Shown piece after piece: positions 58 through 5,983 of a stretch of DNA of 18,739 nt. This stretch comes from Promethearchaeota archaeon. Its GTDB lineage: Archaea; Asgardarchaeota; Lokiarchaeia; Sigyniarchaeales; SOKP01. The DNA is taken from the NCBI GenBank assembly GCA_016926735.1, contig JAFGOA010000221.1, forward strand, positions 1 through 18,739, in the 5' to 3' direction. How positions within the stretch are numbered: position 1 is the stretch's first letter; each line of letters opens with the position of its first letter. Position numbers and translations under genes: made by a program. Under the pieces are notes generated by a model, which saw only the letters and a list, made by a program, of their open reading frames with translations, did not search any database and had not been told where the DNA came from.

Positions 58-1053
58 ATGGGAGAGTTAATATTTTTAGACATTTTTGGAAATTTTATAA
101 AATCTGAAATCATACTTGAAAAAAAACCAATCCATTGTATAAAAATAAAAGATTTAAATAATAATGGATTTCAAGAGATCCTTATAGGAGGATTCGATGG
201 GATCTTAAGAATTTTTACAATAAAAGATGATTTATCTCTAGAGTTATTCTGGATTCATAAATTTGAAATGTCAATAAGTGGTATCATATTAGATGATATT
301 AATTCTGATAATAATTTAGAAATAATCGTTTTTTCTCTTGATAGAACTCTCAGAATTTTGAATGTAAATGGTGAACTAATCTGGGCTCAGATGTTTGAAA
401 AAGGAATTGGAGATGTTACTATTTATTTTGATAGGAAAAGTAATAAAAAACAAATATTTGCAGTTGGAAATGATGGAACATTGAGAATTTATGATGGAAG
501 TTCAGGTGATTTATTATGGTTTAAGATTTTTAATAATAAATTAAGATGTCTTTCTATTATTAAAACAAATGGAAGATCAATATTAGCTTGTGGAGGTGAT
601 GATAGAAAACTTTATCTTATTGAATTGGATAATCAAGAAATTATAAAAACTCTAGCTTTTAATAACTATGTTTGGAAATGTAAAGCTTTCCCAAAATCAT
701 CCTTAGATAATTTAATTGTAAGTAGTTATTCATTTGAATTTTTTAATAATTCAAAGTCTTTAGCTGATATTAATTTTACCTCAAAAATTGTATCTATAAA
801 TAAAAATATTGAAATAAAATGGGAATTAACGGAAATTAATTCGGAAGATTTTTGTATATTTAATAAAAATAAACATATACTAATAGGAATTGGTACAACT
901 AAAGGAGATCTAATAATTGTAGATGAAAACAGTGGAAATATAATTTTTAAAATAGAATTATTTTCTTGCATTAATATGGTTCAATATATTTCTGAAGAAG
1001 ATTTATTAATAGCTTGTAATGATGAAGGAAAGATGTATGCGTTCTCTTTATAA
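58..1053 (+). CDS. Beta-propeller protein with WD40/FG-GAP-like blades; probably 5'-truncated, as the frame is open to position 1
   Basis: Repeating ~40-aa blades: DLNNNGFQEILIGGFDGILRIF, DINSDNNLEIIVFSLDRTLRIL, AVGNDGTLRIYDGSSGDLLW, CGGDDRKLYLIEL, GTTKGDLIIVDENSGNIIF, CNDEGKMYAF. No in-frame stop between 1 and 58. Confidence 0.8.
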   Translation: MGELIFLDIFGNFIKSEIILEKKPIHCIKIKDLNNNGFQEILIGGFDGILRIFTIKDDLSLELFWIHKFEMSISGIILDDINSDNNLEIIVFSLDRTLRILNVNGELIWAQMFEKGIGDVTIYFDRKSNKKQIFAVGNDGTLRIYDGSSGDLLWFKIFNNKLRCLSIIKTNGRSILACGGDDRKLYLIELDNQEIIKTLAFNNYVWKCKAFPKSSLDNLIVSSYSFEFFNNSKSLADINFTSKIVSINKNIEIKWELTEINSEDFCIFNKNKHILIGIGTTKGDLIIVDENSGNIIFKIELFSCINMVQYISEEDLLIACNDEGKMYAFSL

Positions 1054-1139: not shown

Positions 1140-1472
1140 CTAGTCGTCATCCTCATTTAGAACTTTCTCTTCAGCAGCTAACTCTTGTTCAAGTTCTTCT
1201 AAAGGTACTGGTGCTGGCGTTGTAAGCATACTATAACCTATCCAAACAGCAATTACTGCAATTAATGCTACAATTATACACATAGGAACTACAACAAAAA
1301 ATTGCCACTTAAAAACATCAAATCCTAACCAAGATGTAGTTATGTCGAATCCAGCGGGATAATCCCAAACTTCCCACATAAGATAATCAACAATTGAACC
1401 TAGCACATATAAGATACCTATAGCGGCACCTAATATCATTACAATTAATCCAATTATTTTATCTTTTCTAAT
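1140..1472 (-). CDS. Small two-TM membrane protein, DPM2/PIG-P-like, with an acidic C-terminal tail (ORF track start GTG 1481; proposed start ATT 1472)
   Basis: Two hydrophobic helices (IIGLIVMILGAAIGILYVL; FFVVVPMCIIVALIAVIAVWIGYSML) followed by TTPAPVPLEELEQEL. Residue spacing matches DPM2 as recalled. Confidence 0.65.
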   Translation of the reverse strand: MRKDKIIGLIVMILGAAIGILYVLGSIVDYLMWEVWDYPAGFDITTSWLGFDVFKWQFFVVVPMCIIVALIAVIAVWIGYSMLTTPAPVPLEELEQELAAEEKVLNEDDD

Positions 1473-1617
1473 TGTTAACACCTTTATTATTATTATAACT
1501 TGATAATGAATTCTAATTTCTCAAGTTATTACTAATAAAATCACATTTCAATAAAAACCATTTGATTCTAAATAGAATCTATATCTTTAAAATTTTTTAT
1601 TTTTTTTCCCTTAATAA

Positions 1618-1834: not shown

Positions 1835-2818
1835 ATGATTACTTCTAAAATTGAACCATATGTCCTTATAATTGGTTCCAGTAATATGGATCTAAATATT
1901 TATTCTCAAAAATTACCCAAACCTAGTGAAACGGTGACAGGTGGAACTTTCAAACAAACCTTAGGTGGAAAAGGGGCAAATCAATCAATAGCATCAGTCA
2001 GATCTGGTGCAAAGACTATTTTTATTAGTAAAATTGGTTTAGATCCTTTTGGAGATCAGATGATTAAGAATCTAAATGATAATGGCGTAATTACTGATTT
2101 TATCATAAGAGATCCAATAAATCCAAGCGGAGTTGCTTTCATTTTGATTGATGATAAAGGAGAAAATATGATCAGTGTAGCTCCAGGTTCTAATTCAAAA
2201 TTAGAGATATCTGAAATAAAAAAAATTAAAAATATAATCAAGAATTCCAGTGTGTTAATAATTCAAATGGAAATTCCAATTAAGACGATTGAAATTATTT
2301 TTAAAATAGCTTCAAAAGGAAATACTATAAAGATACTCAATCCAGCACCTTTAAGATCTATTCCAATAGAACTTTTTAAAAATATTGATATTCTTGTACC
2401 AAATGAAGGAGAACTTTTCAAATTACATACCATCTTAGGTTTTAAAAAGCATTATAAAAAGAATTCTAATATTGATTTTAATACAATTATAAAAACATGT
2501 AAAGATATTGGTGAATTAGGGCTTAAATTCATTATTCCTACTTTAGGTTCAAAAGGTTGTATATTATATGATGTTTTGAATAAAAAAGGAACCATATTTC
2601 CCTCATTTAATGTCAAAGCAATTGACACTGTTGGTGCCGGAGATTGTTTTAATGGTGTATTAGCTAGTCAATTATATAAAAAAAAATCAATAATCGAATC
2701 AATAAAATATGCAATATCAGCAGCATCAATAGCAATTACAAGATTAGGGGCTCAAGAATCCATACCCTTTTTAGAAGAAATTCATGAAAAAGTAAAAGAG
2801 TACAAAAAAATTTTATGA
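1835..2818 (+). CDS. rbsK: Ribokinase (PfkB family)
   Basis: GSSNMDL, GGKGANQ, GENMISVAPGSN, LNPAP, PNEGE and DTVGAGDCF motifs. Confidence 0.9.
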   Translation: MITSKIEPYVLIIGSSNMDLNIYSQKLPKPSETVTGGTFKQTLGGKGANQSIASVRSGAKTIFISKIGLDPFGDQMIKNLNDNGVITDFIIRDPINPSGVAFILIDDKGENMISVAPGSNSKLEISEIKKIKNIIKNSSVLIIQMEIPIKTIEIIFKIASKGNTIKILNPAPLRSIPIELFKNIDILVPNEGELFKLHTILGFKKHYKKNSNIDFNTIIKTCKDIGELGLKFIIPTLGSKGCILYDVLNKKGTIFPSFNVKAIDTVGAGDCFNGVLASQLYKKKSIIESIKYAISAASIAITRLGAQESIPFLEEIHEKVKEYKKIL

Positions 2819-3060
2819 AACCAAAATTTGTGTCTTTTTTTCATCTTTTAAGCTAAATATTTTTAATAAAAAAAATTTAGTCAGAAAATACATTTGAAAG
2901 GCTTCTTTTTCTTCTTTAGTTTGAAATTTTCAAAATTTTAATTCAATCAAGATCAATAAAATTAAAAAATTATAAAACACTGATCTAATCCTCAAAATAA
3001 CAAAATTAAAAAAAAAAAATAATTTTGTAAAACTTATCGGAACAATAAGATTTGATTAAG

Positions 3061-3579
3061 ATGACTCCAGACGAAGAACATAGAGAAGAAGAAATAGAAG
3101 AAAAAGTAGAAGAGGATACTTCTGAAGAAATAGATGATGAAATAGAAGATGAAATTGACGCAGATAAAGAACTTGATAAATTAAAATTTCATTATCGCGG
3201 ATATACCTTAGATGATTTAAAAAAAATGAATATGGATCAATTCATACAATTATTACCTGCAAGAGCAAGACGATCTTTGAAACGTGGTCTACCTCCAAGG
3301 CAAAAGAAACTTTTAGAAAGATTAAGAAGATCCTATCGTGCTAAAAAAAGAGGAAAAGATATTCTTACAAGAACTCATGTGAGAGATATGATAGTGTTTC
3401 CAGAAATGGTTGGATTAAAAATCGGGGTATATAATGGAAAAACATATGAAGTTGTTGAAATTAAACCAGATATGATTGGCCATTATCTTGGAGAATTTTC
3501 ACAAACAAGAAAACGAATAACACATGGATCTCCTGGTGTTGGTGCTACAAGAAGTTCAAAATATGTTCCATTGAAATAA
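3061..3579 (+). CDS. rps19: 30S ribosomal protein uS19 with acidic N-terminal extension (ATG 3061 preferred over TTG 3052)
   Basis: [71 protein letters not shown]. Confidence 0.97.
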
Positions 3580-4348: not shown

Positions 4349-5983
4349 ATGGCTGTTAATTCTTATCTGTATTGGAATAATAAAGGTGATGAATTCTATC
4401 AGAATAAAGAGTTCCATAGAGCAATTAAATGTTATATAAAAGCATTAGAAACTAATAGAAAATCTTCCCTTATATGGAAAAATTTAGGAGATGCTTATAT
4501 TAGCTTGAAAAACTTCCAAAAATCTATTAAATGTTATAATCATGCGTTAAAAATAGACCCTCGATGTAAGGAAGTATGGAATAATAAAGGGATGGCTTAT
4601 AGTCATTTTGAAAGATATAATGAAGCAATTAAATGCTATAATAATGCTATAAGGTTAGATCCACAATATCTATTAGCCTTAAATAATAAAGGGTCTTCTT
4701 TAATACAATTAAAAAGATATAATGAAGCAATATCTTGCTATAATAAAGCTCTTAAAATCGAACCAACAAAATTAATTGTTCTATACAATAAAGGACTGAC
4801 ATTATATTATCTAAAACGATATAAAGAAGCTATTGATTCATTTGATAAAGCATTAAACCTTAAACCTAATCACATTTTTACCTTAGTGAATAAAGGAATT
4901 ATTCTTGCTCACCTTAAAAAATATGAAAAAGCAATTGATTTTTTTGATAAAGCCTTAGGATTAGGATCAAATGAAAAACAAACATGGCATAATAAAGGAA
5001 CTGCTTTAGGTAAACTTAAGAGATATAAAGAAGCTATTGTTTGTTTTGATAAAGCATTAGAATTAGATGAATATTATATACAAGCTTTGAGAGGAAAAGG
5101 GATTGCATTATTTCACCTGAAAAATTATGATGAAGCATTAAATTATTACAATAAAACTTTAGAATTGGATAGTAACAGTACACAGTCTTGGAATAATAAA
5201 GGAGTTGTTTTAGATAAACTTAAAAGATTTGAAGAAGCTATCTATTGTTTCAATAAAGCTTTAAAATTAGATTCAAAATATGTATACGCTTGGAGTAATA
5301 AAGGCTTTTCCCTAAACAATCTAAGAAGGTATGAAGATGCAATAAACTATTATGATAGAGCTTTAGAACTAGATTCCTCTGAAAAAGAAACATGGTATAA
5401 TAAAGGAACTGCATTGGGTAAGCTTAAGAATTATAAAGAGGCACTTAAATGTTTCGATAAAGCCTTAGATTTAGATCATAGCTATTTAAATGCTGTTAAA
5501 GGTAAAGGAATTGTACTTTTTCATCTTAAAAATTATGATGAAGCTCTTTTATTTTATGATAGAATAATAGATCAAGGTGCAGAATCTAAACAAGCATGGA
5601 ATAATAAAGGAGTAATTCTTTTCAAACTTAAGAAATTTAAAGAAGCAATAAGTTGTTTCAATAGAGTATTAGAATTAGATTCAGAATATAAATTCGCTTG
5701 GAACAATAAAGGTCGTTCTCAAATAAATCTTGAAAAATATAGTGATGCAATTATCTCTTTCAGTAAAGCCTTAGAAATAGACCCTAATTTTGCAGACGCT
5801 TTATATAACAAAGCTTGTATAGAGTCAGAAATTAATATAATTAATCAATCTATTAGAAATTTAGAAAAAGCTATTTTTATAGATGAAAAATATAAGAGGA
5901 GAGCTCAAAATAACAAACATTTTAGGAAACTAAAAAATCTACCTGAATTTATAAAAATAACTTCAAATTCTTCAAAATATTGA
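4349..5983 (+). CDS. Tetratricopeptide repeat protein (15 tandem 34-aa TPRs, the last with a YNKAC... capping module)
   Basis: Exact 34-aa periodicity with the consensus W/L-x-NKG...Y/F-x-EA...Y/F-x-KAL-x-LD. The C-terminus YNKACIES...NLEKAIFIDEKYKRRAQNNKHFRKLKNLPEF resembles a TPR end cap. Confidence 0.95.
   Translation: MAVNSYLYWNNKGDEFYQNKEFHRAIKCYIKALETNRKSSLIWKNLGDAYISLKNFQKSIKCYNHALKIDPRCKEVWNNKGMAYSHFERYNEAIKCYNNAIRLDPQYLLALNNKGSSLIQLKRYNEAISCYNKALKIEPTKLIVLYNKGLTLYYLKRYKEAIDSFDKALNLKPNHIFTLVNKGIILAHLKKYEKAIDFFDKALGLGSNEKQTWHNKGTALGKLKRYKEAIVCFDKALELDEYYIQALRGKGIALFHLKNYDEALNYYNKTLELDSNSTQSWNNKGVVLDKLKRFEEAIYCFNKALKLDSKYVYAWSNKGFSLNNLRRYEDAINYYDRALELDSSEKETWYNKGTALGKLKNYKEALKCFDKALDLDHSYLNAVKGKGIVLFHLKNYDEALLFYDRIIDQGAESKQAWNNKGVILFKLKKFKEAISCFNRVLELDSEYKFAWNNKGRSQINLEKYSDAIISFSKALEIDPNFADALYNKACIESEINIINQSIRNLEKAIFIDEKYKRRAQNNKHFRKLKNLPEFIKITSNSSKY
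4991..5806 (+). repeat. Diverged 408-nt (4-TPR) tandem duplication inside the TPR gene
   Basis: AATAAAGGAACTGCTTTAGGTAAACTTAAG at 4991 versus AATAAAGGAACTGCATTGGGTAAGCTTAAG at 5399. Protein motifs NKGTALGKLK and GKGIxLFHLKNYDEAL recur 136 aa apart. Confidence 0.8.

Follow-up and report, generated by a model that had tools for sequence, protein, structure and literature searches.

DPM2 and PIG-P are poorly understood helpers in two essential pathways of the endoplasmic reticulum (ER), the supply of dolichol-phosphate-mannose (Dol-P-Man) and the opening step in GPI-anchor synthesis, and both have been linked to human glycosylation disorders. DPM2 is the regulatory subunit of the eukaryotic type-II Dol-P-Man synthase and also a component of GPI-GlcNAc transferase, of which PIG-P is a subunit alongside PIG-A, PIG-C and PIG-Q. 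An N-in/C-in topology has been reported for both. Type-I, type-II and type-III Dol-P-Man synthases were described by Gandini et al. (PMC5526996), who suggested a topological correspondence between DPM2 and DPM3 and the two helix pairs of the Pyrococcus enzyme, PfDPMS, and human DPM1 has no membrane helices and depends on DPM2/DPM3 (PMC5526996). A proteoarchaeal origin of Dpm1 has been proposed by Lombard (PMC4973528), and the entry for PF07297 in the supplement of a Nature 2025 study gives a DPM2/PIGP duplication before LECA and a descent from the Asgard lineage (PMC12872463).

The window, the whole stretch of DNA analysed here, comprises 18,739 nucleotides from a Promethearchaeota archaeon, is AT-rich (27% G+C) and carries an archaeal ribosomal-protein operon. 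On its minus strand, an ORF of 113 codons plus stop encodes a DPM2/PIG-P-like membrane hairpin protein (1140..1481; called start GTG at 1481-1479, stop codon at 1142-1140). It is a real gene: it appears in the ORF list, has homologues and is present as a single copy. With a G+C of 0.345 against 0.272 for the window overall, it ranks highest among the window ORFs; its GC3 is 0.211, and G+C reaches its maximum of 0.43 in the part that encodes the tail of the protein. The start codon is ambiguous between GTG and ATT. The box GGTG (1479..1482, minus strand) may be the GTG start with its preceding G, or a Shine-Dalgarno-like element for an ATT start at 1472-1470, nine bases downstream of the GTG. 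Starting at ATT would give the N-terminus M-R-K-D-K, which is usual for the archaeal hairpin family, most members of which begin with M-x-K-D-K in our alignments. The stretch AAAGGTGTTAACAATTAG (1470-1482, minus strand) is the same in four relatives with 79-96% protein identity, and the DNA upstream of it differs among them. One relative (L003) has an in-frame upstream ATG instead.

The protein is laid out as two helices, a loop and an acidic tail. Transmembrane helix 1 (residues 6-37; 1371..1466, minus strand) carries D7, G11, G18 and Y25, reads D7-K-I-I-G11-L...Y25 (DKIIGLIVMILGAAIGILY) and aligns to helix 1 of DPM2 and PIG-P. It is followed by an acidic, Trp-rich loop (residues 38-58; 1308..1370, minus strand), the length of which varies in the family alignments, and by transmembrane helix 2 (residues 59-87; 1221..1307, minus strand), which reads V65-P66...W80-I81-G82-Y83-S84-M85-L86 (VPMCIIVALIAVIAVWIGYSML) and also aligns to DPM2 and PIG-P. 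The motifs from which the original prediction had argued for a DPM2 homologue are thus present as it wrote them, D-x3-G-L-x12-Y and P-x14-I-G-Y-x-M-L at residues 7-25 and 65-86, with TTPAPVP after the second. The C-terminal tail (residues 88-113; 1143..1220, minus strand), which is probably cytoplasmic, consists of this TTPAPVP linker and an acidic helix, LEELEQELAAEE. AlphaFold2, run on a 40-sequence alignment, confidently predicted a hairpin (mean pLDDT 86) with helices at residues 6-37, 49-52 (a short one, within the loop), 59-87 and 94-111. The N-terminus is basic (RKDK), the loop acidic and rich in Trp, and the tail strongly acidic. From the basic N-terminus and the positive-inside rule we infer an N-in/C-in topology, with the Trp/Asp-rich loop outside.

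A word-indexed search yielded 536 homologues (E<=0.01), which, where they bore names, were hypothetical proteins of Lokiarchaeota, Thorarchaeota, Hodarchaeota and Promethearchaeota MAGs. An exhaustive search of 50%-identity representatives added 56 more divergent members of equal layout. Njordarchaeota and Thermoproteota MAGs occur among the named cluster members; outside Asgard, the family is known from such members and a few contigs. A family model found a single copy in the source genome (E 4e-34), where the tail motif occurs in no other protein. Of 121 genomes sampled from the phylum, 108 contained a match to this model, among them 50 of the 52 that are at least 90% complete.

Conservation is strongest at the motif positions and in the tail. 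The 32 aligned Asgard homologues, 54-84% identical to the window protein, show no variation at G18, Y25, P66, W80 to E98 and E100 to E105, and their conservation at D7 and G11 is 90% or more. The acidic tail TTPAPVPLEELEEELAAEE does not vary in this alignment, and the tail is invariant across Loki-, Thor-, Hod-, Hermod- and Odin-labelled MAGs. Across 40 diverse archaeal sequences, G11, W80, I81, G82, T88 and P89 remain invariant and D7, P66, T87, P91, P93 and E95 reach at least 90% conservation, with W, Y, F or other residues at position 83; Thermoproteota-type members retain T-T-P-[PA]-P-x-P-[IL]-E. The D, G, Y and P positions and the I-G-aromatic-x-M element that the original prediction singled out are accordingly conserved in the archaeal homologues of both alignments. 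Its further remark was that the tail recalls a poorly annotated archaeal small-protein family; the archaeal hairpin family bears the NCBI label 'hypothetical protein'. All family hallmarks occur in the window protein, namely the M-x-K-D-K-x-x-G start, the Tyr at the end of helix 1, the Pro at the start of helix 2, W-I-G-aromatic-[ST]-M, and the T-T-P-[PA]-P-x-P-[IL]-E-acidic tail. The best explanation is that the gene is a vertically inherited housekeeping gene and belongs to an archaeal branch of the DPM2/PIG-P superfamily.

Membership in this superfamily was assessed by profile-profile comparison. Aligned by hhalign with 13 named mammalian DPM2 proteins, the profile of the 40 diverse archaeal members gave a probability of 97.0, an E-value of 9.3e-11 and a score of 59.3 over DPM2 residues 3-77 of 84. 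Against 15 named vertebrate PIG-P proteins, it gave a probability of 96.9, an E-value of 1.9e-10 and a score of 62.8 over 85 columns. The human DPM2 blocks quoted in the original prediction are correct, letter for letter, in NCBI/UniRef-named DPM2 proteins (P0178 and others); the entries retrieved by a 78-residue DPM2 query go by the name 'dolichol phosphate-mannose biosynthesis regulatory protein', share 97-99% identity with it and all carry PF07297. The equal, ungapped spacing claimed for these blocks is borne out by the alignment with DPM2, which pairs D7/D6, G11/G10, Y25/Y24, P66/P54, I81/I69, Y83/Y71, M85/M73 and L86/L74, all columns of the motif residues, without a gap in either helix. 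P66 also stands opposite P59 of PIG-P, and IGYSML lies opposite ISYVML of DPM2. The alignment with PIG-P takes in the segment after helix 2, with GYSMLTTPAPVPLEEL opposite GINMMSTSPLNSIHTI. Controls in which one or the other partner was reversed scored 14-17, and 100 segment-preserving column shuffles gave a mean of 16.2 (sd 3.1, maximum 26.3) for DPM2 and of 18.5 (sd 3.9, maximum 34.0) for PIG-P. Because the real scores lie far above all these controls, the match is position-specific and goes beyond generic hydrophobicity. These results support a true but distant relationship of the hairpin protein to DPM2 and PIG-P, with an identity of 16-18%.

Searches with the Pfam models, which the original prediction had proposed as a check, gave a divided result. 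With the window protein, PIG-P (PF08510) reached 14.7 bits (E 0.029), under its gathering score of 39.3 bits, and DPM2 (PF07297, gathering score 27.3 bits) gave no match at E<=10; run over the whole genome, both models returned noise only. Scanned member by member at E<=0.01, 21 of the 40 diverse sequences matched PIG-P (best 3.9e-10) and 15 matched DPM2 (best 1e-7). The Pfam families that recurred across these members were PIG-P, DPM2 and Phage_holin_3_6, PIG-P being the most frequent.

The similarity could in principle be convergent, the product of two hydrophobic helices with a Gly and a Pro at the helix starts in an otherwise unrelated archaeal membrane hairpin. Such proteins are short and hydrophobic, the identity to DPM2 and PIG-P is low, and the Pfam models missed the protein in the window and in the genome-scale scans. 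Comparisons of fold were uninformative: neither the hairpin protein nor either of the two family profiles gave a meaningful hit in sequence searches of the PDB, Foldseek returned zero matches in the PDB, and a shape search of ESM Atlas found solely the family's own and Bathyarchaeota clusters. As the PDB copy searched holds no solved DPM2 or PIG-P structure, the fold could not be compared with theirs. Against convergence, the real scores exceed the segment-preserving shuffles by about 11 to 14 sd and the reversed controls by a wide margin, the alignment stays in register end to end over both helices, some members reach Pfam-level E-values for both families, and an independent phylogenomic study places Asgard sequences in PF07297. 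We consider this reading already disfavoured and very unlikely. Still more improbable, to the point that we give it hardly any credence, is a holin-like protein (Pfam Phage_holin_3_6, Holin-X, PF07332) that permeabilises the membrane. Phage_holin_3_6 is the best single Pfam match of the window protein (E 0.0034, 17.9 bits) and matches 18 of the 40 members at E<=0.01 (best 8.7e-6), but 17.9 bits is below the gathering score of 28.4, the matches across the family are weaker than those to PIG-P and DPM2, and the gene occurs in single copy, almost universally and in synteny with adjoining ribosomal genes, without phage genes in its surroundings.

Within the superfamily, the hairpin protein looks like a relative of the type that preceded the DPM2/PIG-P duplication. 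The archaeal profile matches both families, whereas the DPM2 and PIG-P reference profiles, which are vertebrate-only, barely match each other (E 0.0048); the comparison thus points to an undivided relative rather than to a DPM2 orthologue. Homology to DPM2, as put forward in the original prediction, has held; the protein is nevertheless no DPM2 orthologue, since its match to PIG-P is equally good. The suggestion of a possible prokaryotic root for an ER accessory subunit is supported as regards the Asgard kinship, but it is not new: this kinship is already in print, in the Nature 2025 supplement cited above, and in automatic database names. ESM Atlas has a cluster of Thorarchaeota proteins automatically named 'Dolichol phosphate-mannose biosynthesis regulatory protein', and its Asgard clusters near the hairpin protein either bear the automatic name DPM2 or contain PF07297 in 11% of members.

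Like the archaeal protein, DPM2 is a two-helix hairpin of similar size, about 80-90 residues compared with 113 in the window protein, for which two long helices are modelled. They have in common the D-x3-G at the start of helix 1, the Tyr at its end, the Pro at the start of helix 2 and the I-x-Y-x-M-L at its end. The archaeal loop is about 15 residues longer, and the archaeal protein ends in a 26-residue acidic tail, in contrast to the short basic C-terminus of DPM2 (K-x-K-R-x-x-K-K). With PIG-P it has in common the G of helix 1, the Y, the P of helix 2 and G-x-x-M, and the juxtamembrane T-[ST/A]-P segment of PIG-P and its spaced hydrophobic residues align with the archaeal TTPAPVPLEEL. The longer C-terminal domain of PIG-P, ending in IPALKDISISEVN, is missing from the archaeal protein.

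The neighbourhood of the gene was compared across 80 Asgard loci from species-representative genomes; these were retrieved by Asgard-specific tail patterns, and the counts concern Asgard alone. The gene order is remarkably constant among them: uS3, uL22, uS19, a PMI-type cupin, a ribokinase-like PfkB kinase, the hairpin gene, a beta-propeller protein, a 375-residue protein, an M20 peptidase and OST3/OST6. The kinase gene (1835..2818, plus strand; PfkB E 2e-55) is adjacent to the hairpin gene in 79 of 79 Asgard loci, usually divergent from it, as in the window, and co-directional in some genomes. Against the ribokinase model TIGR02152, the window kinase scores 295 bits, just below the cut-off of 299.65. 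In 72 of the 80 loci, the gene for the PMI-type cupin (PF01050, 45 bits) separates the ribokinase-like gene from uS19. It is not at this usual place in the window (2819-3051, compared with L030:4143-4859). On the other side, a beta-propeller protein (58-1053, plus strand) is the neighbour of the hairpin gene in 51 of the 80 loci. Its Pfam matches are weak: BBS7 beta-propeller with 28.8 bits (cut-off 27), the PTHB1 N-terminal domain with 30.3 (cut-off 28.6), Itfg2 and FG-GAP. A gene of the OST3/OST6 family (PF04756, E 5e-11, L004:11396-11962) is found about 5 kb off in 32 Asgard loci, after the M20 peptidase gene and mostly on the strand of the hairpin gene; the window contig ends short of that position.

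In a Thermoproteota metagenome contig (L084:6171-7327), the hairpin gene is divergent from a cis-prenyltransferase gene (PF01255) across a gap of 48 bp. Genes for a DegT aminotransferase, a GT2 enzyme and a member of Glycos_transf_4, which we take to be the family of ALG7, cluster within 6 kb, and a cupin-type PGI (PF06560) is also nearby. In another archaeal contig, a GT4 gene abuts the hairpin gene. The neighbours in other lineages are AdoHcy hydrolase, an MFS transporter and an Arf-like GTPase, and ribosomal genes are found nearby in two further settings, eL31/eL39/eS19 in contig L083 and uL3/uL4 in another lineage. The genomic context thus hints at a link of the hairpin gene to dolichol and glycosylation without making a compelling case, and the synteny with the kinase and the ribosomal operon may be frozen and not necessarily functional.

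Possible partner enzymes were sought in the source genome, which is 99% complete. Its best GT2 enzyme, on contig C61, has 256 residues and resembles Dol-P-hexose synthases and DPM1; its top solved relative is the Pyrococcus Dol-P-Man synthase 5mlz (E 1.3e-25, chain residues 22-232 of 374). In NCBIfam, it is closest to AglJ and other polyprenyl-phosphate hexose synthases, under the cut-offs. It ends about 20 residues past the catalytic domain, in a short amphipathic or hydrophobic stretch. It is thus without the four-helix membrane domain of the Pyrococcus type-III enzyme. In comparison with the type-III synthase of Pyrococcus furiosus (PDB 5mlz), a free-standing hairpin and a short synthase would be a split version of the design. 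The hairpin family profile did not detect 5mlz at E<=10, and the C-terminal helices of longer Asgard GT2 enzymes went unmatched by the family HMM. A scan of the whole genome for DPM3 (PF08285) returned noise only, PIG-C (GPI2) was not found in it, and a PIG-A domain reached 23.7 bits, under the cut-off of 27. The eukaryotic complexes thus seem not to be present as such.

By analogy with its eukaryotic relatives, the hairpin protein most likely has no catalytic activity of its own. We propose that it is a small accessory subunit that would hold or stabilise some membrane-associated enzyme active in lipid-linked (dolichol-phosphate) sugar metabolism. The faces of both helices that carry the G, Y, P and G-x-x-M residues would pack against a partner within the membrane, and the invariant tail, with TTPAPVP and the acidic helix, would be the docking site for a cytoplasmic partner. 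The best candidate class of partner would be a Dol-P-hexose synthase without a membrane domain of its own, such as the 256-residue C61 enzyme. This general reading, in which the membrane hairpin is an accessory to a cytoplasmic or peripheral enzyme of dolichol-linked sugar metabolism and docks it by its acidic tail, has in our view about an even chance of being right. A more specific and distinctly tentative version, which we hold to be rather improbable as it stands, is that the protein is an undivided, ancestor-like form that does the jobs of both DPM2 and DPM3, with the hairpin as the membrane part and the tail tethering a Dol-P-hexose synthase that has no membrane domain. The split, multi-subunit type-II design of eukaryotic Dol-P-Man synthase and, through duplication, PIG-P would then be older than eukaryotes.

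The main competitor accepts the kinship to DPM2 and PIG-P and places the archaeal role outside glycosylation: the protein would be a general housekeeping membrane adaptor, for example in membrane-protein biogenesis or some other process with high expression, with a tail that recruits a conserved cytoplasmic factor unrelated to sugars, and the roles in glycosylation would have come later. A near-universal, single-copy gene with the highest G+C of the window genes would suit such a role, as would its place next to the uS19-uL22-uS3 operon in all Asgard loci examined and near the other ribosomal genes in contig L083 and in the lineage with uL3/uL4. Several lineages have neighbours without a link to glycosylation, and DPM2 does without the tail. 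However, both eukaryotic descendants act in lipid-linked sugar transfer, PIG-P partly keeps the tail segment, and neighbours linked to dolichol or glycosylation occur in three independent settings. We regard a non-glycosylation adaptor as a serious but somewhat unlikely alternative to an accessory role in dolichol-linked sugar metabolism.

As a near-universal, single-copy archaeal relative of DPM2 and PIG-P, the hairpin protein offers a simpler system for studying the function of such hairpins. With it, the ER glycosylation machinery gains one more component of Asgard/TACK ancestry, next to STT3, OST3/6, ribophorin and Dpm1. What is worth asking is which enzyme the protein partners and what its invariant acidic tail does, rather than whether the gene exists. 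Should the hairpin indeed unite the functions of DPM2 and DPM3, a split type-II design would be amenable to study in cultured Asgard or Thermoproteota.

The ribosomal-protein operon of the window has two further features. A gene for a TPR-repeat protein of 544 residues (4349-5983, plus strand) separates uL22 from uS3 and shares their strand; in the Asgard loci examined for gene order, uL22 and uS3 stand side by side, with no such gene at this place. The uS19 ORF (3052-3579, plus strand), as listed with a TTG start, carries about 45 additional, acidic residues at the N-terminus, and uS19 in other Asgard loci reaches a similar length (median 181 residues).
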